64,000 bases of DNA from Desulfuromonas sp. (GTDB lineage: Bacteria > Desulfobacterota > Desulfuromonadia > Desulfuromonadales > UBA2294). The notes beneath the pieces were generated by a model. That model saw only the letters and a list, made by a program, of their open reading frames with translations. It made no database searches and was not told the DNA's origin. How positions within the stretch are numbered: position 1 is the stretch's first letter; every line of letters starts with the position of its first letter. This document shows, piece by piece, positions 2,676 to 9,488 of this stretch. The stretch covers positions 3,710 to 67,709 of the forward strand of contig PKTZ01000020.1 of the NCBI GenBank assembly GCA_002868925.1, read 5' to 3'. Position numbers and translations under genes: made by a program.

Positions 2676-3353
2676 ATGCAACTGAAGGATGATTTATTGC
2701 AATGTCCGATGTTCTCCGGGGTGACCGATGAAGACCTGAAATTCCTGGCCGGAGTCATCCGGCAGAGGGTCTGCGAGAAGGGCGAGCTTCTCTTTTCGGA
2801 AGGGGATGCCGCCGCCGGTTTTTACGTGCTGGCCGAGGGACGGGTCAAGGTTTACAAGCTTTCGCCCGATGGCAAGGAGCGGATTCTGCATATCGTCCAG
2901 CCCGGCACCTCCTTTGCCGAAGCGGCGATCTTCGGTGACGGTCATTATCCGGCCTATGCCGAACCGCTGCAGAAGTCGCGGTTGCTCTTCTTTCCGAAAC
3001 GGGAGTTTCTCGACCTGCTGCACAATAAATCACAGATTGCGATCAACATGATCGGCGGTCTCTCCCGGTTCCTGCGGCAATTTGCCACTCAGGTCGAGCA
3101 GCTTACCTTCCAGGATGTCCCGGCCCGCCTGGCCAAGTATATCCTGGGCCTCGCCGGTGACGAGAATGACGAAGTGCTCCTGCCGATTCCGAAAGGGGAG
3201 CTCGCTTCAAACCTTGGGACGGTCAGTGAGACCCTGTCTCGAACCTTCCGCAAGCTATCGGAGGAGGGGCTGATTTCGGTCAAGGGGAAGCAGATCCGAA
3301 TCGAGGACCGGGACAGCCTCGAAGATATCGCCGAGAGCACCAAGGAGAGGTAG
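2676..3353 (+). CDS. Crp/Fnr-family transcription regulator (cNMP-binding-like domain plus C-terminal HTH); lacks the N-terminal Cys cluster of true FNR
   Basis: 225 aa. Beta-roll effector domain (FSEGDAAAGFYVLAEGRVKVYKLSPDGKERIL) and HTH (ELASNLGTVSETLSRTFRKLSEEGLI). Only one Cys in the N-terminus. Confidence 0.9.
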   Translation: MQLKDDLLQCPMFSGVTDEDLKFLAGVIRQRVCEKGELLFSEGDAAAGFYVLAEGRVKVYKLSPDGKERILHIVQPGTSFAEAAIFGDGHYPAYAEPLQKSRLLFFPKREFLDLLHNKSQIAINMIGGLSRFLRQFATQVEQLTFQDVPARLAKYILGLAGDENDEVLLPIPKGELASNLGTVSETLSRTFRKLSEEGLISVKGKQIRIEDRDSLEDIAESTKER

Positions 3354-3369
3354 TCGATTCAATCCGGTT

Positions 3370-3383
3370 TTGACTTCGGTCAA
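3370..3383. promoter_or_regulatory. Perfect FNR/CRP-type palindrome TTGACTTCGGTCAA (TTGAC-N4-GTCAA)
   Basis: Read directly. Centre lies 42.5 bp upstream of ATG 3419 and 17 bp after the Crp/Fnr gene stop. Confidence 0.6.
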
Positions 3384-3418
3384 GGTTTTGTCCGTTTATC
3401 CATGTCAGGATAGCCCCG

Positions 3419-4552
3419 ATGAAAAAATACTTTCAAAACAGATTAGTGCTGCTCTCGGCTTTCTTTACTGTGGTGATCGCAGGTTGTGCCGCTGTACCAC
3501 CTGTTACTGATCTGCCGTCAGATTATCAGCTAAACCAGGTCGGCTCGCTCGGGAAGGGGGACGCGGTAGCCTGGCACCCCGACGGCGAACGTTTCTCCGC
3601 CGCTGGCAAGCGTCTCATGGTTGGATCGGTCGATGGTAACCTGGTTACGATCGACGGTGACGATCCGGCTGCTATCGCCTGGTCACCGACCGGGGCGGTT
3701 CTGGCGGCATCATTCATTGATGGAACTGAAACAACGGTCCGCCTTTACGATGTCGACACCTGGAACAAAATCGCCGAGATCGCGGTTGAGGGCAGGGCGC
3801 GCGATCTCGCCTTTATCGACGATACGGCGCTGCTCATCGCCTCGGTTCTGCTCAAGGAATATTCTTTCGGAGCCAACTATACGGTCCGCCTCTACACCTG
3901 GCGCCAGAATGAACCGCTCGCTTACGATACTATTGCCGACACCTCGCCGCTCAAGTCGTTCCTGGAAGCGCTGGGCGATTCGATCTACGACTCGGTCCAC
4001 CTACAGATATCGCCATTTCGGGACGAGATCCTCTACACCAAGCTATTGTTGACACCGAACGCCGGGCGCAAGGCTCAGCTGGTGGTCCGGCATCTTGCCA
4101 CTGGCCGCGAGCGGATCGTTGCCGCTTTGCCGGCCACTAGTTCCGGCGGACGCTACTTGGCCAAGGGAGACGCCATCTTCTTCAGTGACGGCGCTTACCA
4201 GTCGATCAAGGGGTCGATTTGGGGGACCGAGCCGTACGAAACCTACCTCCCCGGCCTCAGGCTCGAAATCTCGCCGGGAGGGCGTTACAAGCTGATCGAT
4301 AACGCCTTGCTGAAAGACCGCGAAGAGATATTGAAATTCAAAGTACTCGACAGTGCCGCCTTCAGCCCGGACGGCTCCAAACTGCTGCTGCTTGCCGACG
4401 GAACATTGTTCCTGCTTTCGTTTTTTGATGATGCTGTAGTTGATCGTCCGTCCGCGACCCCGAAACTGTTGGAGCTGCGCAGCTGGCGTAGCGAAGGGCT
4501 GATCAGTCCGCAGGAATTCCTGCGCTACCAGCGCCAACTGGAGAATAGATGA
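3419..4552 (+). CDS. Lipoprotein with WD40/TolB-like beta-propeller repeats and a SHOCT-like C-terminal tail
   Basis: Lipobox signal MKKYFQNRLVLLSAFFTVVIAGC. Repeated AWHPDG / AWSPTG / AFSPDG propeller-type motifs. C-terminal LRSWRSEGLISPQEFLRYQRQL. Stop overlaps the next start (ATGA). Confidence 0.75.
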   Translation: MKKYFQNRLVLLSAFFTVVIAGCAAVPPVTDLPSDYQLNQVGSLGKGDAVAWHPDGERFSAAGKRLMVGSVDGNLVTIDGDDPAAIAWSPTGAVLAASFIDGTETTVRLYDVDTWNKIAEIAVEGRARDLAFIDDTALLIASVLLKEYSFGANYTVRLYTWRQNEPLAYDTIADTSPLKSFLEALGDSIYDSVHLQISPFRDEILYTKLLLTPNAGRKAQLVVRHLATGRERIVAALPATSSGGRYLAKGDAIFFSDGAYQSIKGSIWGTEPYETYLPGLRLEISPGGRYKLIDNALLKDREEILKFKVLDSAAFSPDGSKLLLLADGTLFLLSFFDDAVVDRPSATPKLLELRSWRSEGLISPQEFLRYQRQLENR

Positions 4553-5448
4553 TCATTTTACGACCGCTTCTCATAACGGCGCTATTTCTTTTATCCGTGA
4601 TCTCGACGGTTGTCGCCGCCGAATCCTGTCTCGACTGTCACCAAGACGAGACGCCGGGAGCGGTGCGGCAATGGCAGGAGTCAGCCCATGCCGTCGATGT
4701 CGGTTGCGCCGATTGCCACAAGGGTGATCATGAAGCGATCGTCGCCGGTGAAGCGCCGGTCGTCGCTGCCGTCTGCGGTGAATGTCATCGTGATGAATAC
4801 AGTCAACACACTGACAGCCGGCACGGCATGGGGCTGCATGCCGGCTGGGGCTGTACCCGCAACATGCCGGACCGTAACAAGGAAGAATGCCGCTTCTGTC
4901 ACGAAGAGGGGAGCACGCTGCCCCGAACGATCGTCCATTGTGCCCGTTTCCTCAAGCAGAGCAGCGAGATGGGGATGATCGGCTGCAACCGCTGTCACCA
5001 GGTCGAAAACAACTGTGCCTCCTGCCACAGCAACCACCTGACCCGTCCGGAGATCGCCGCCGATCCGAAGGTCTGCGCCAAGTGCCACATGGGGCCGGAT
5101 CACCCGCAGTGGGAGATGTGGGAGACCTCAATGCACGGCACACTCTATTCCTCGGCAGGCCCCGAAGTCGGGCCGAGTTGCCAGCTCTGTCACATGCCTG
5201 ATGGCAGCCATGACGTTTCACGCGGCCTGACATCACCGCCGAGCATGAAGCCGTACACGGAAGCCGAACAGGCCGGGCAACGCGATGAGATGATCGAAAT
5301 CTGTAGCCAGTGCCACGCGGCCGATTTCGCCCGCCGTGATCTGGCTGCTGCCGACGCCGTGCGCAGACAAGGCCTCGCCCTTGTTGCAGAGGCGGAAGAG
5401 GTGGTGCGGGATATAAACGACCGCAATCTGCTCGACCCGCCGCCGTAG
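4549..5448 (+). CDS. Multiheme c-type cytochrome, hydroxylamine-oxidoreductase (HAO)-like, N-terminal heme-binding part; ends at an in-frame TAG
   Basis: Signal peptide. Nine CXXCH motifs (CLDCH, CADCH, CGECH, CRFCH, CNRCH, CASCH, CAKCH, CQLCH, CSQCH). HAO-type motif CAKCHMGPDHPQWEMWETSMHG. Confidence 0.85.
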   Translation: MIILRPLLITALFLLSVISTVVAAESCLDCHQDETPGAVRQWQESAHAVDVGCADCHKGDHEAIVAGEAPVVAAVCGECHRDEYSQHTDSRHGMGLHAGWGCTRNMPDRNKEECRFCHEEGSTLPRTIVHCARFLKQSSEMGMIGCNRCHQVENNCASCHSNHLTRPEIAADPKVCAKCHMGPDHPQWEMWETSMHGTLYSSAGPEVGPSCQLCHMPDGSHDVSRGLTSPPSMKPYTEAEQAGQRDEMIEICSQCHAADFARRDLAAADAVRRQGLALVAEAEEVVRDINDRNLLDPPP

Positions 5449-5499
5449 AAGCGGCCAAAACACCCACTGCAGGGGAATAAACTGGTCACCGACGGCGAG

Positions 5500-5832
5500 A
5501 TGCTCTACGAGGACTACTCGCACATCGAGCGGCTGTTCTTCAAGATGAAGAAGTACTCCCTGGCCAAAACAGTCAAGGGCGCCTACCACCAGAACCCGGC
5601 CTACACCCACTGGTACGGCAACGCCGAGATGAAGATGGACCTGGTCGATATCAAGGCCGAGGCGAGCCGGTTGAAAAAGATGGCCGCCCCGGTGAAGACG
5701 GCAACCACGAGCGATGACAGCAGTTTCGAAGCTAAGCTGAAACTGCTCAAGAAAAAGTTCGATCGCGGAGCATTGAACAAGGAAGAGTACGAACAGGAGA
5801 AGAGAGTGCTGATGCAGGGCTACCTCGAGTAG
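5500..5832 (+). CDS. Same-frame continuation of the HAO-like cytochrome (helical C-terminal region plus SHOCT-like tail)
   Basis: Same frame as 4549..5448, with only TAG 5446..5448 between them. Codons 5449..5499 are open (KRPKHPLQGNKLVTDGE). No Shine-Dalgarno before ATG 5500. Tail KLKLLKKKFDRGALNKEEYEQEKRVLMQGYL. Confidence 0.6.
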   Translation: MLYEDYSHIERLFFKMKKYSLAKTVKGAYHQNPAYTHWYGNAEMKMDLVDIKAEASRLKKMAAPVKTATTSDDSSFEAKLKLLKKKFDRGALNKEEYEQEKRVLMQGYLE

Positions 5833-5856
5833 TCCAGCCTGCGCTATAATCGAGTC

Positions 5857-6234
5857 ATGAAGATGGATGCGGCAAACAAGAGTGAACTGACCAAGAAAGA
5901 GCTGAAGGACCTGCGCGTGCTGGCCCAGTTTACTTCGGTCTATTGCAAAGCCCATCACGACACGGAGCGGTCGCCGCTCGCCGCCGACACTCAGGGAGTC
6001 GCCGAACTGAATGTAAGTAAATACCCGGTCTGCCCGGAGTGCAGCGATTTTCTCTACTACGCGATCAAGCGTCGCCTCTATTGCCCACTCGATCCGAAGC
6101 CGACCTGCAAGCACTGCCCGGTACATTGCTACAAGCCCGACTATCGTCAGAAGGTGAAGGAGATCATGCGCTTTTCCGGAAAATACCTGATGTTGCGCGG
6201 TCGCCTCGATCTGCTCTGGCACTACTTCTTCTAG
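5857..6234 (+). CDS. ygbA: YgbA-like 'nitrous oxide-stimulated promoter' family Cys-rich protein
   Basis: 125 aa. Motifs VYCKAHH, CPECSDFLYYAIKRRLYCPLDPKPTCKHCPVHCYKPDYRQKVKEIMRFSG match my recollection of the YgbA family. Confidence 0.7.
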   Translation: MKMDAANKSELTKKELKDLRVLAQFTSVYCKAHHDTERSPLAADTQGVAELNVSKYPVCPECSDFLYYAIKRRLYCPLDPKPTCKHCPVHCYKPDYRQKVKEIMRFSGKYLMLRGRLDLLWHYFF

Positions 6235-6261
6235 AACCCCTTTAAGGATAGTAGTCGTTTG

Positions 6262-6374
6262 ATGGGACTGTCCACATAAGGGGGCTGTCCCTCTGGTTTT
6301 GCTGTGTGAACTGCCGCGGCACCAGCCTCTGTAATTATATCGGGACAGCCCCCGTTGGAACCGGGGACAGCCCC
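6262..6374. repeat. Cluster of GGGACAGCCCC-type motifs forming a long hairpin
   Basis: GGGGGCTGTCCC (6280..6291) is the exact reverse complement of GGGACAGCCCCC (6342..6353). A third copy GGGGACAGCCCC lies at 6363..6374 and a degenerate GGGACTGTCC at 6264..6273. Confidence 0.6.
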
Positions 6375-6434
6375 GGGTTGGTTTTCTCGGTTAATTGCCT
6401 TCATGACAACCGATTTATCACTTTTCTGTATTTT

Positions 6435-6448
6435 TTGACGCGCGTCAA
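6435..6448. promoter_or_regulatory. Perfect FNR/CRP-type palindrome TTGACGCGCGTCAA (TTGAC-N4-GTCAA)
   Basis: Read directly. Centre 6441.5, upstream of the Fe-S protein gene at 6536. Confidence 0.65.
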
Positions 6449-6467
6449 AGATGTTGTCGGACTGTTT

Positions 6468-6476
6468 TGATATTCT
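6468..6476 (+). promoter_or_regulatory. Extended -10 candidate TGATATTCT
   Basis: TGn plus TATTCT. Predicted TSS ~6483 puts the upstream palindrome centre at about -41.5, the class II activator geometry. Confidence 0.45.
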
Positions 6477-6535
6477 CTGCTTAACAATTGACGAATTGAT
6501 CAACCGAAAACGTTTTTTAGATAAAGGAGAAAGAC

Positions 6536-7330
6536 ATGATCCGCGACATCGTACTCATCGACGAAGAAAAATGTGACGGCTGCGGCCTCTGCGTACCGGC
6601 CTGCGCCGAAGGGGCGATCCAGATCGTCGACGGCAAGGCGAAACTGGCGGCTGATAACCTCTGCGACGGCCTCGGCGCCTGTCTCGGCCATTGTCCGCAG
6701 GACGCGATCAAGGTGGTCAAGCGCGAAGCGGATGAGTTCGACGAGGTGGCGGTCGAGCAGCATTTGAAGGAGACCGCACCGGAGAAACTGGAAGAGTTCC
6801 ATGCCGAGCACGGACACGCACCGACCGGTGGCGGCTGCCCTTCGGCCCAGGTTCAGAACTTCGCCAAGCAGGCCGCTCCCGTTGGCGGTGGTTGCCCGTC
6901 GGCGCGGATGATGAATTTCGACAGCAAGCCGCAAACGGATGCTGATGATCAGGCGGGTCAGCGCCCGTCCGAGCTGCGCCAGTGGCCGGTTCAGCTTCAC
7001 CTGGTACCGCCGACCGCACCGTTCTTCCAGAATGCCGATGTTGTGTTGGCGGCCGATTGCGCGGCGTTTGCCTACGGTGATTTCCATAAGGATATTATCA
7101 AGGACAAGGCGTTGGCGATCGCCTGCCCGAAGCTCGACGACACCACACCTTACATCGACAAACTGACGGCGATGATCACCCAGAGCAATATCAAGAGCCT
7201 GACCGTCGTGTTGATGGAAGTTCCCTGCTGTGGCGGCCTGCTGGCGATGGCGAAACAGGCGATCGCCAACAGCGGAAAGGATATCCCGCTGGAGACGATC
7301 GTCGTCGGTATCCAGGGTGATATCAAGTAG
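6536..7330 (+). CDS. 4Fe-4S ferredoxin-domain protein with Cys-rich C-terminal domain
   Basis: RBS AAAGGAGAAAG. N-terminal CDGCGLCVPACAEG and CDGLGACLGHCP cluster motifs. Duplicated GGGCPSA motif. C-terminal CPKLDD and EVPCCGG. Confidence 0.8.
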   Translation: MIRDIVLIDEEKCDGCGLCVPACAEGAIQIVDGKAKLAADNLCDGLGACLGHCPQDAIKVVKREADEFDEVAVEQHLKETAPEKLEEFHAEHGHAPTGGGCPSAQVQNFAKQAAPVGGGCPSARMMNFDSKPQTDADDQAGQRPSELRQWPVQLHLVPPTAPFFQNADVVLAADCAAFAYGDFHKDIIKDKALAIACPKLDDTTPYIDKLTAMITQSNIKSLTVVLMEVPCCGGLLAMAKQAIANSGKDIPLETIVVGIQGDIK

Positions 7331-7360
7331 TTCCGAGAAAGCTTGTTCATCGTTTATAAA

Positions 7361-7392
7361 GGGCCCGGAATATTCCGGGCCTTTTATTTTTT
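7361..7392 (+). terminator. Rho-independent terminator
   Basis: GGCCCGGAA-TA-TTCCGGGCC hairpin followed by TTTTATTTTTT. Confidence 0.8.
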
Positions 7393-8483: not shown

Positions 8484-8558
8484 GGGCGTTTAGCTCAGCG
8501 GGAGAGCACTGCCTTCACACGGCAGGGGTCGACAGTTCGATCCTGTCAACGCCCACCA
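8484..8558 (+). tRNA. tRNA-Val (anticodon CAC), CCA encoded
   Basis: Manual cloverleaf: acceptor GGGCGTT/AACGCCC, D stem GCTC/GAGC, anticodon stem CTGCC/GGCAG with loop TTCACAC, T stem GACAG/CTGTC with loop TTCGATC; 75 nt. Confidence 0.9.
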
Positions 8559-8849: not shown

Positions 8850-9239
8850 TTATTGCTGCCCCGCAGGTTTCCCTTCATCTTCCTCCATACCATCCCGGTC
8901 GCGGTCTCTATCCTGATCACGATCCCGGTCCTGATCCGGAGTTTGGTCGTCATGGAGCTCATCCCTGTCACGATCACGGTCTCGATCTCTGTCCTGATCT
9001 TGCTCCTGATCGGCGCTTTCCTGTTTCATCTGCTGGTTTTGGTGCTGATAACGCTCCTCGTCCTGCATCTGATGTTCTGAGGCATTTCCATATCCCGACA
9101 TGCCCATTCCTGATTCACCGGCGGAACCGCTCCCTGAGCCGCCACCCGCGCCGCCTCCGCCTCCACGTGCCGGTGCCTGGGGTGCGAAGATCAGAGCGAG
9201 CAACAAGCCGGATAACATCAGTTTTGCGAACCGTTTCAT
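8850..9239 (-). CDS. Secreted low-complexity protein (Gly-rich segment then Asp-Arg/Asp-Gln dipeptide repeats)
   Basis: RBS AGGAGAGAGAG before ATG 9239. Signal peptide MKRFAKLMLSGLLLALIFAPQAPA. GGGGGAGGGSGSGSAG, then QDQDRDRDRDRDRDELHDDQTPDQDRDRDQDRDRDRD. Confidence 0.6.
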   Translation of the reverse strand: MKRFAKLMLSGLLLALIFAPQAPARGGGGGAGGGSGSGSAGESGMGMSGYGNASEHQMQDEERYQHQNQQMKQESADQEQDQDRDRDRDRDRDELHDDQTPDQDRDRDQDRDRDRDGMEEDEGKPAGQQ

Positions 9240-9488
9240 TTTCTCTCTCTCCTGTCTGGTGCATTCATTGAGTGGCAAAGTATTGTAATAAAGATAAAAT
9301 ATCTCTAGATATAGTGTTTGCAAGTGCATTCGGTTGAATTGTATTCGTTTTACAAGTTGTTGATATGTAAACGTTTATTTTCTGCCATTCTTTTGTTCTT
9401 TTGGTCGGGAATTTACAGGAGAGACGGGTTGGAAACTAAGGGTAAGGAATCAATCTGTTTTTTCGGTTAAGCCTGCTGACTGAACAAT

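Follow-up and report, generated by a model that had tools for sequence, protein, structure and literature searches.

The 64,000-nucleotide stretch of Desulfuromonas DNA analysed here (hereafter, at its full length, the window) carries in close succession genes for a Crp/Fnr-family regulator, a lipoprotein, a multihaem cytochrome related to HAO, a YgbA-like protein and a 4Fe-4S protein of the FrdX type, together with two copies of a perfect palindrome, and this arrangement most probably represents an HcpR-controlled nitrosative-stress locus of an uncultured Desulfuromonas. HcpR has been defined as the Crp/Fnr regulator of hcp and frdX (PMC545781, PMC1274295); the system itself is already known, having been predicted for Desulfuromonas and Geobacter in 2004-2005, and the locus is a well-supported new example of it. 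It confirms, independently and statistically, this 20-year-old comparative-genomics prediction of HcpR in the Desulfuromonadales, and it sharpens the prediction by delimiting a core, hcpR-ygbA-frdX, by the exact class II geometry of the predicted promoters and by a first gene that is apparently translated from a leaderless mRNA. Further additions are a link between YgbA and a second regulator responsive to nitric oxide (NO), and the recruitment of a lipoprotein-HAO gene pair in one lineage. Current understanding is not overturned by these observations, the value of which lies in annotation and in the choice of experimental targets.

Palindromic boxes

With both strands of the whole window and its coding sequence included, the exact palindrome TTGACNNNNGTCAA was found at two sites only, which are the boxes 1 and 2 of Table 1. 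The expected count of TTGAC-N4-GTCAA in the window is 0.09, and none of 100 dinucleotide-preserving shuffles yielded two or more sites, while a scan of the 64 kb allowing one mismatch returned no further site as compared to 1.5 expected. By means of a weight matrix that was built exclusively from the boxes of orthologous loci in other genomes, the two window boxes rank first and second with scores of 22.4 and 20.3 bits, and the third-best site in the window reaches 11.2. Both boxes are unchanged in all four near-identical assemblies that are available for comparison. The motif agrees with the consensus wyTTGACnnnnGTCAArw published for HcpR of Desulfuromonas, Geobacter and Desulfotalea (PMC545781, PMC1274295), and the cognate palindrome TTGACnnnnGTCAA is kept 5' of the target genes across genomes.

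The initial annotation, made from the sequence of the window, had reported two perfect TTGAC-N4-GTCAA boxes beside a Crp/Fnr gene, one preceding the lipoprotein, HAO-like and YgbA genes and the other preceding a 4Fe-4S gene, and it had noted that the regulator lacks the N-terminal Fe-S cysteines of FNR. The scan of the entire window, coding regions included, found just these two boxes, the gene calls proved correct, and an alignment with E. coli FNR likewise reveals neither an N-terminal extension nor equivalents of Cys16, Cys20, Cys23 and Cys29 in the regulator.

The regulator

DNR of Pseudomonas aeruginosa is a haem-based, NO-sensing Crp/Fnr activator of denitrification, and it is also the protein that gives the top match of the regulator in the PDB (3DKW, 108 bits, E = 4e-30, as compared to 61 bits for FNR and 48 bits for CRP), with an identity of about 35%. 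The two domains of the regulator are matched by PF00027 (1e-23) and PF13545 (8e-18), while the four cysteines that ligate the cluster in FNR, three N-terminal ones and Cys122, have no match in it and the NCBIfam Fnr model gives it only 63 bits where 228 would be required. Its recognition helix GTVSETLSRT, which aligns with GCSRETVGRI of CRP and SIQPETFSRI of DNR, places Ser, Glu and Arg at CRP positions 180, 181 and 185 and shows no change among 8 orthologues. A Ser or Pro in place of CRP Arg180 has been described for HcpR of the Desulfuromonas/Geobacter/Desulfotalea group (PMC545781, PMC1274295), and the DNR clade has been placed as sister to HcpR1 (Rodionov 2005, PMC1274295). As judged from these comparisons the regulator would be DNR-like in its working, yet it is no DNR orthologue. 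In the database records a 100% identical protein is entered as a Crp/Fnr regulator of a Desulfuromonas sp. metagenome-assembled genome (MAG), and homologues with 68-71% identity bear the JGI label 'dissimilatory nitrate respiration regulator'.

A divergently transcribed regulator with 40% identity is encoded at positions 5913-6581 of locus L023 in a Thermodesulfobacteriota MAG, where it lies beside tandem HAO-like paralogues. Its helix reads GTVRETLSK with Arg at position 180, which would predict a motif of the TGTGA type.

Related loci and the conserved core

A scan with an alignment of the cytochrome, taking one genome per species, yielded 18 orthologous loci at 55-60% identity; L-numbers are used here for loci in the compared assemblies. 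Those with regulator, ygbA and Fer4 gene, i.e., the hcpR-linked loci, come from Desulfuromonadales MAGs (L005, L006, L007, L009, L019, L020 and L022), and their boxes, almost without exception perfect, are found directly 3' of the regulator gene, in the loci from which it was recovered, and ahead of ygbA or the Fer4 gene. Specifically, L005, L006, L007 and L009 have a perfect equivalent of box 1 directly 3' of the regulator gene, and that of L019 deviates by one mismatch; in L022, from which the regulator gene was not recovered, a perfect box precedes the lipoprotein gene. A box also precedes frdX in L005, L006, L009, L020, L022, L087 (with one mismatch) and L089. The loci L087 to L089 encode regulators with about 70% identity in hcpR-ygbA-Fer4-thioesterase clusters that contain boxes and are devoid of the lipoprotein and cytochrome genes. 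Taken over nine hcpR-linked loci, there are 13 perfect boxes in 95 kb versus 0.06 expected.

In turn, not a single perfect box was found in 146 kb of Geobacter-type loci that have the lipoprotein-HAO pair and no hcpR. Box-like sites are present in two out of ten such loci, namely in L012 (score 22.2) and in L013 (13.2, FNR-like), and there are none in the other eight, so that control of the lipoprotein-HAO pair by HcpR appears to be mostly absent from loci of this type. Because the clusters and their boxes also occur without the lipoprotein-HAO pair, the conserved core consists of hcpR, ygbA and frdX. The comparison indicates that the lipoprotein-HAO pair is a separate module of two genes, with translational coupling via an ATGA overlap, and that its place under the first box is due to an insertion in one lineage.

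The same comparison bears on the question of whether the boxes might be bound by another Crp/Fnr paralogue, e.g., an oxygen- or redox-responsive FNR-like protein or a general anaerobic regulator, the neighbouring regulator being there by coincidence or having other targets. TTGAC-N4-GTCAA is only one base per half-site away from the FNR site TTGAT-N4-ATCAA, some orthologous sites do read TTGAT, Crp/Fnr paralogues are numerous in the delta-proteobacteria, and L012 and L013 have their box-like sites before the lipoprotein-HAO pair with no regulator alongside. However, the partition of perfect boxes between hcpR-linked and unlinked loci, the invariance of the recognition helix in the orthologues wherever the motif is kept and the position of the first box, which is always directly 3' of the regulator gene where the latter was recovered, all tie the boxes to the neighbouring gene, and the lack of an Fe-S cysteine cluster in the regulator is a further point against this reading. 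Binding by another paralogue is therefore considered unlikely.

Predicted promoters and transcript ends

A spacing of 22 nt between the site and the -10 element, with the site centred at -41.5, is the class II position of FNR and CRP. In all 19 promoters compared (11 of lipoprotein or ygbA genes and 8 of frdX) a -10-like hexamer is located 22-23 nt past the box, the distance being 22 nt in each of the 8 frdX promoters, and most of these hexamers conform to xAxxxT, with A second and T last. Both promoters of the window thus fit a predicted class II, Crp/Fnr-dependent geometry.

The lipoprotein promoters in this set are those of the window, L005, L006, L007, L009 and L019, and the ygbA promoters those of L007, L019, L020, L087/88 and L089. 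In these 11 promoters the distance from the box centre to the ATG is 41.5-43.5 bp, the ATG follows the hexamer after 6-8 nt, and no separate Shine-Dalgarno sequence was found before the ATG; the AGGA 8 nt before the ATG in the window and in L019 belongs to the -10 hexamer CAGGAT itself. Because of this short distance and the lack of a ribosome-binding site we infer that the lipoprotein and ygbA mRNAs are leaderless, transcription in the window presumably starting at about 3418-3419. For frdX, in turn, 77.5-96.5 bp separate the box centre from the ATG, which would correspond to leaders of about 36-55 nt across loci, and all 8 promoters have a strong Shine-Dalgarno sequence ahead of the ATG. With the start predicted at about 6483, the leader in the window would measure about 53 nt, and its ribosome-binding site is GGAG at 6526-6529. 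The sites published for the Geobacter cytX-frdX pair at -50 and -51 (PMC1274295) imply the same distance of 41.5-42.5 bp.

Activation rather than repression is also what this geometry suggests. If repression took place at one box or at both, or if the regulator had a dual action, one would expect the boxes to overlap the true promoters instead of lying at -41.5, and the TTGACT of box 1 does indeed resemble a -35 hexamer; moreover, HcpR has been predicted to repress genes of sulfate reduction in Desulfovibrio (PMC545781). Yet no acceptable -10 element is found 16-18 nt past either TTGAC half-site, a sigma-70 scan detected no consensus promoter overlapping either box, the -10-like hexamers keep to the class II spacing in the 19 promoters, and where HcpR has been tested it regulates hcp and frdX positively (PMC12915319, PMC1274295), all of which makes repression quite improbable.

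With respect to the transcript ends, the repeated GGGACAGCCCC elements in the spacer before box 2 (6281-6374) were considered as a possible mobile element or RNA gene, which was rejected as they have no Rfam match and occur as exact copies only in this spacer. Since each of them gives a short GC hairpin with a T-run behind it, they most likely are tandem terminators, and the hairpins at 6279-6376 are likely to terminate the lipoprotein-HAO-ygbA unit.

Of the remaining promoter-like features, a perfect TATAAT at 5845-5850 is situated 6 nt before the ygbA ATG and has no box at -41.5. The stretch at that distance, which falls within the end of the HAO gene, reads CTGATGCAGGGCTA and looks like a degenerate box, and in L022 the place matching the TATAAT is occupied by TACAAT (about 2766-2771). 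The TATAAT may be a relic, or a box-independent version, of an ancestral leaderless ygbA promoter.

FrdX and YgbA

The gene behind box 2 encodes a protein with Fer4 families, and PF27217 (AF_0155) is recorded on an identical protein. A tblastn search against plasmid records found two full-length homologues of it, in Roseburia and Acetoanaerobium. The Roseburia homologue, with 41.5% identity over 98% of the length, closes an hcp - Crp/Fnr - 4Fe-4S cluster in which the box GTAACATTTGTTAC stands before hcp, and the Acetoanaerobium homologue is preceded by GTAACCTATGTTAC, an HcpR2 box of the form GTAAC-N4-GTTAC. An arrangement of hcp, HcpR2 and frdX with such a motif represents the clostridial HcpR2 type (Rodionov 2005, PMC1274295), and because the two homologues display this arrangement and motif the window protein can be assigned to the FrdX type, i.e., to a core target of HcpR. 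In published data, too, frdX counts among the core targets, and the sites of the frdX genes lie 73-104 bp upstream (PMC545781, PMC1274295). In C. difficile, NO raises frdX expression more than 100-fold via HcpR, and knock-down of the gene results in NO sensitivity (PMC12915319). A sequence comparison with the PDB gave no match to the C-terminal domain (PF27217, AF_0155). The motif GG(G)CPSA occurs twice in the linker (window 6800-6910) between the ferredoxin domain and the CPKLDD / EVPCC(G/N/S)G domain, and it does so in all orthologues.

The YgbA-like protein exceeds the cutoffs of both family models (NF007714, 126.4 bits versus 88; PF11756, 71.5 versus 25), and it is 41% identical to E. coli YgbA (BLASTP, E = 2e-13) with a conserved CKxCPVHCY core. 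In enterobacteria YgbA is a member of the NO regulon controlled by NsrR (PMC2884951, PMC5320621). Here again the initial annotation, which had invoked a NO-responsive regulon of enterobacteria for YgbA and a role as companion in HcpR regulons for the ferredoxin-like gene, was right on both counts: the former is the NsrR regulon (PMC2884951, PMC5320621), and a full-length FrdX homologue stands behind box 2.

In a published table of HcpR sites a 'cytX-frdX' pair is listed for two Geobacter species, as well as a cytX1 adjoining frdX in Desulfuromonas (PMC1274295). The sequence CKHCH, by chance a signature of cytochrome c, is found in 2 of 10 YgbA orthologues. The old name 'cytX' can probably be traced to it, and the cytX of the published pair is very probably YgbA, which would mean that ygbA-frdX was already catalogued in 2005. 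By tying YgbA to a second and unrelated NO-responsive regulator, the locus gives firmer grounds for assigning this protein a direct part in nitrosative stress.

The lipoprotein and the HAO-like cytochrome

The stop codon of the lipoprotein gene overlaps the start codon of the cytochrome gene (ATGA, 4549-4552), and the two genes are paired in nearly all orthologous loci. An AlphaFold2 model of the lipoprotein (pLDDT 89.6) has a seven-bladed WD40-type beta-propeller followed by a C-terminal tail of two helices. Its best Foldseek matches are WD40 propellers, a generic fold in which no catalytic clue was found by this comparison, and judging by the model the lipoprotein might serve the cytochrome as a scaffold or as an anchor in the membrane. 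The lipoprotein gene (4450-4549) and the cytochrome gene (5740-5829) each end in a stretch that encodes a two-helix tail, KLLELRSWRSEGLISPQEFLRYQRQL and KLKLLKKKFDRGALNKEEYEQEKRVL, respectively, and the two tails are similar. The Pfam SHOCT model did not detect the lipoprotein tail, the likeness of which to the cytochrome tail was seen by eye only. The tails may mediate the pairing of the two proteins.

The cytochrome matches PF13447, and the SHOCT domain scores 31 bits when the tail is scanned alone. Its relatives include KsHOX, the Kuenenia HOX (4N4J, 9e-33), HDH (7e-30) and NeHAO (3e-24). Because the NCBIfam equivalog model of HDH scores 103 bits against a cutoff of 900, the protein is to be regarded as a member of the HAO family and not as an HDH or HAO orthologue. 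Its ninth CxxCH (C114xxC117H118) lies, together with the invariant Cys102 and Cys131, in a segment (residues 97-146) without a counterpart in NeHAO, which has eight motifs; accordingly configured, the cytochrome may be a nonahaem relative of HAO, or it may have an additional metal or disulfide site.

A conserved tyrosine, cross-linked to the catalytic haem of the neighbouring subunit, marks the oxidative (P460) HAO and decides between oxidative and reductive action in HAO proteins (PMC8042395). In an alignment that is uncertain by 1-2 residues at this place, Tyr467 of NeHAO is aligned with the invariant His354. Tyr356 is the counterpart of the tyrosine in the 'YGN' motif of KsHOX, and 3 of 20 orthologues have Ile or Leu in its place. 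Since there is no strictly conserved Tyr at the cross-link position, the reductive type is favoured, i.e., an enzyme that would act on nitrite, NO or hydroxylamine. The lipoprotein-HAO module, which is common in Geobacterales and Desulfuromonadales, is a candidate periplasmic enzyme for nitrogen oxides.

The HAO-like gene had been placed behind box 1 by the initial annotation. Its family and position stood up, but its reading frame is broken by an in-frame TAG that had previously gone unreported. Homology of the cytochrome carries on past the TAG to 5832, and the window protein is 99% identical to the intact protein P0001 of 427 amino acids. Four assemblies (L001-L004) with 99.5-99.9% identity all encode an intact 427-residue cytochrome; the closest comparison, with the ENA metagenome contig L001, gives 99.86% identity over 15.8 kb, and among the 23 substitutions with respect to L001, 6 that are private to the window fall into the 1.3 kb of the cytochrome gene. 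Since the four assemblies have TCG, and homologues vary between S, T and E at this position, read-through or insertion of pyrrolysine can be rejected, and the TAG is a strain-specific nonsense allele or an error and not a case of recoding. As a consequence of the nonsense codon the HAO-like effector is probably inactive in the strain of the window.

In L022, from an uncultured Desulfuromonadales MAG, the HAO-like gene (1914-2780) has lost an internal segment in frame, so that the last haem motif and the C-terminal helical domain are missing and the N-terminal part is joined straight to the SHOCT tail. It provides another example, besides the window, of an HAO-like gene that is decaying or being remodelled in an hcpR-linked locus.

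Proposed working of the locus

In the mechanism that is proposed here, a dimer of the DNR/HcpR1 type would recognise TTGAC-N4-GTCAA via its Ser-Glu-x3-Arg helix in response to NO, or to NO derived from nitrite, which would probably be sensed by a haem cofactor as in DNR and in HcpR of P. gingivalis, for the latter of which haem-based NO sensing is documented (PMC12750200). Binding to both boxes, each about 41.5 bp 5' of a predicted start, would result in class II activation. The first promoter would drive the lipoprotein, HAO-like and ygbA genes as one unit, with an mRNA that starts at most 1-2 nt from the start codon and ends at 6279-6376, and the second promoter would drive frdX, with its leader and strong ribosome-binding site, up to the terminator at 7356-7387. 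YgbA and FrdX would reside in the cytoplasm, and the WD40-propeller lipoprotein and the cytochrome with its nine CxxCH motifs in the periplasm. The core hcpR-ygbA-frdX would be ancestral and widely conserved, the lipoprotein-HAO pair having been inserted later in one lineage of the Desulfuromonadales.

A signal other than nitrogen oxides (carbon monoxide, sulfide, metals or the redox state), with the nitrogen-oxide flavour of the locus being due to guilt by association, is very unlikely, for although the haem ligand of DNR is not conserved in the regulator, HcpR1 of D. desulfuricans responds to nitrate rather than to NO (PMC5701242) and the functions of YgbA, FrdX and the HAO-like protein in this lineage are only putative, there are three independent links to nitrogen oxides (NO tolerance through FrdX in C. 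difficile, the NsrR regulon for YgbA and the HAO family), and the published HcpR regulons of Geobacter and Desulfuromonas include hcp, nrfA, nar and dnrN (PMC1274295).

There are several points that weigh against the locus being an HcpR-controlled nitrosative-stress system of the kind outlined above. Several Crp/Fnr paralogues exist in the Desulfuromonadales, another of which could share the motif. Neither within the 64 kb of the window nor on the flanks of the orthologous loci did a tblastn search with E. coli Hcp find an hcp gene, which leaves the name-giving target of HcpR unconnected with this regulator. The haem ligand His187 of DNR aligns with Asn in the regulator, so that the sensing chemistry may differ from that of DNR. 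CAGGAT is a weak -10 element at box 1, and the promoters and the leaderless start have been deduced from spacing alone. Finally, because the HAO-like gene is interrupted in the window and partially deleted in L022, its contribution would seem to be dispensable or decaying.

A further proposal can be made tentatively, its chances appearing to be somewhat below even. The HcpR regulon of one Desulfuromonadales lineage might have recruited a periplasmic module for the detoxification of nitrite, NO or hydroxylamine, composed of the lipoprotein and the SHOCT-tailed cytochrome with nine CxxCH motifs and transcribed together with ygbA, from an activator-dependent promoter, into a leaderless mRNA, that complements or replaces the cytoplasmic Hcp, and YgbA might be a NO-stress protein recruited independently by NsrR and by HcpR.

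Comparison with known systems

That the locus belongs to an HcpR/Dnr-type regulon, as put forward in the initial annotation, is supported by the motif, the DNR-like regulator, its Ser-Glu...Arg helix, the class II position of the boxes and FrdX. The annotation had described the cluster, in addition, as lacking hcp and as built around a different set of effectors. The former holds for the 64 kb window as searched by tblastn, and for this stretch only; the published HcpR regulon of Desulfuromonas comprises several hcp genes at separate loci (PMC1274295). The latter is not supported in that form: FrdX is a canonical target, the ygbA-frdX pair was very probably listed in 2005, and the HAO-like gene is lineage-specific and, in this strain, broken.

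The closest known counterpart is the HcpR 'profile 2' (PMC545781, PMC1274295), with which the locus shares the taxa, the motif, the replacement of Arg180 by Ser, frdX as a core target with sites some 85-105 bp ahead of its ATG, and a spacing like that of cytX-frdX. It differs from this profile by having no hcp within 64 kb and by the lipoprotein-HAO pair between the regulator gene and ygbA, and the leaderless geometry is not mentioned in the respective papers. The supplements of a study on nitrate and nitrite in Geobacteraceae contain no mention of hao, ygbA or Crp.

DNR (3DKW, 2Z69) has in common with the regulator the domain layout, the FNR-like half-site, the Pro/Ser-Glu-x3-Arg helix and the lack of Fe-S cysteines, but the identity is only about 35%, His187 is replaced by Asn, and stress and detoxification genes are the putative targets here in contrast to nir, nor and nos in the case of DNR. 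The HcpR2 systems of clostridia and Bacteroidetes (hcp-hcpR-frdX; C. difficile, P. gingivalis), for which induction by NO and NO-sensitivity phenotypes have been demonstrated experimentally (PMC12915319, PMC12750200), also have a Crp/Fnr activator beside frdX; their regulators, however, belong to a different clade (30% identity), their motif is GTAAC-N4-GTTAC, and hcp is adjacent there and absent here.

As to the possible effectors, the cytochrome resembles the reductive HAO proteins (eHao of epsilon-proteobacteria and Kuenenia HAOr Kustc0458, 6H5L; PMC8042395) in its membership of the HAO family (E of about 1e-26 to 1e-33) and its periplasmic location, and it would also resemble them in the lack of a strict cross-link Tyr if the alignment, uncertain by 1-2 residues, is right at this place. 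Unlike these, it has nine CxxCH motifs instead of eight, a SHOCT tail and an obligate partner gene coding for a WD40-propeller lipoprotein, and it would be under the control of HcpR in one lineage. The ygbA gene belongs to the same family as ygbA of the NsrR regulon in E. coli and Salmonella and is, like the latter, placed under a NO-responsive regulator, which here would be a Crp/Fnr activator as opposed to the Rrf2 repressor NsrR; in addition, ygbA is clustered with frdX here.

Features of the locus and neighbouring genes

Table 1. Features of the putative HcpR locus, in coordinates of the window
Feature	Position	Strand	Remarks
hcpR-type Crp/Fnr regulator, HcpR1/DNR-like	2676..3353	+	225 aa; cNMP_binding and HTH_Crp_2 domains
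HcpR box 1, TTGACTTCGGTCAA	3370..3383		centre 3376.5, 42.5 bp 5' of the lipoprotein ATG
Predicted -10 hexamer CAGGAT	3406..3411	+	22 nt past box 1, 7 nt before the lipoprotein ATG
Lipoprotein gene	3419..4552	+	lipobox VIAGC
HAO-family multihaem cytochrome c gene	4549..5832	+	427 codons, signal peptide, nine CxxCH, C-terminal SHOCT
In-frame TAG, codon 300 of the HAO-like gene	5446..5448	+	A5447 is C (TCG, Ser) in L001-L004
ygbA-like gene, 'nitrous oxide-stimulated promoter' family	5857..6234	+	125 aa; PF11756, NF007714
Pair of short GC hairpins, each with a T-run	6279-6294 and 6361-6376	+	GGGACAGCCCC repeats
HcpR box 2, TTGACGCGCGTCAA	6435..6448		centre 6441.5, 94.5 bp 5' of the frdX ATG
Predicted -10 hexamer TATTCT	6471..6476	+	22 nt past box 2
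frdX-type gene	6536..7330	+	264 aa; N-terminal 2x[4Fe-4S] ferredoxin domain, two GGCPSA motifs, C-terminal AF_0155-type Cys domain
Strong intrinsic terminator	7356..7387	+	14 bp stem and T-run; ends the frdX unit

Directly 5' of hcpR there are genes coding for a dCache-HAMP-PAS histidine kinase and a stand-alone receiver (14-2636), to which the corresponding stretch of L001 (4324-8088) adds a gene for a periplasmic binding protein. This neighbourhood is kept only in the near-identical assemblies, and the histidine kinase and response regulator are absent beside the regulator in all orthologous loci, so that they are not supported as a part of the system. The gap of 40 nt that precedes hcpR has no obvious terminator, and hcpR may be co-transcribed with the two-component system in this species.

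On the other side of the locus, a tRNA-Val (CAC) is encoded at 8484-8558, 3' of a thioesterase gene (Rfam 65 bits; ARAGORN). An open reading frame of 159 amino acids on the minus strand (8850-9329), which is called as a gene in a near-identical contig and has no Pfam match, would encode a protein with a signal-like N-terminus, a Gly/Ser-rich stretch and long Asp-Arg/Asp-Gln repeats (DRDRDRDRD...).

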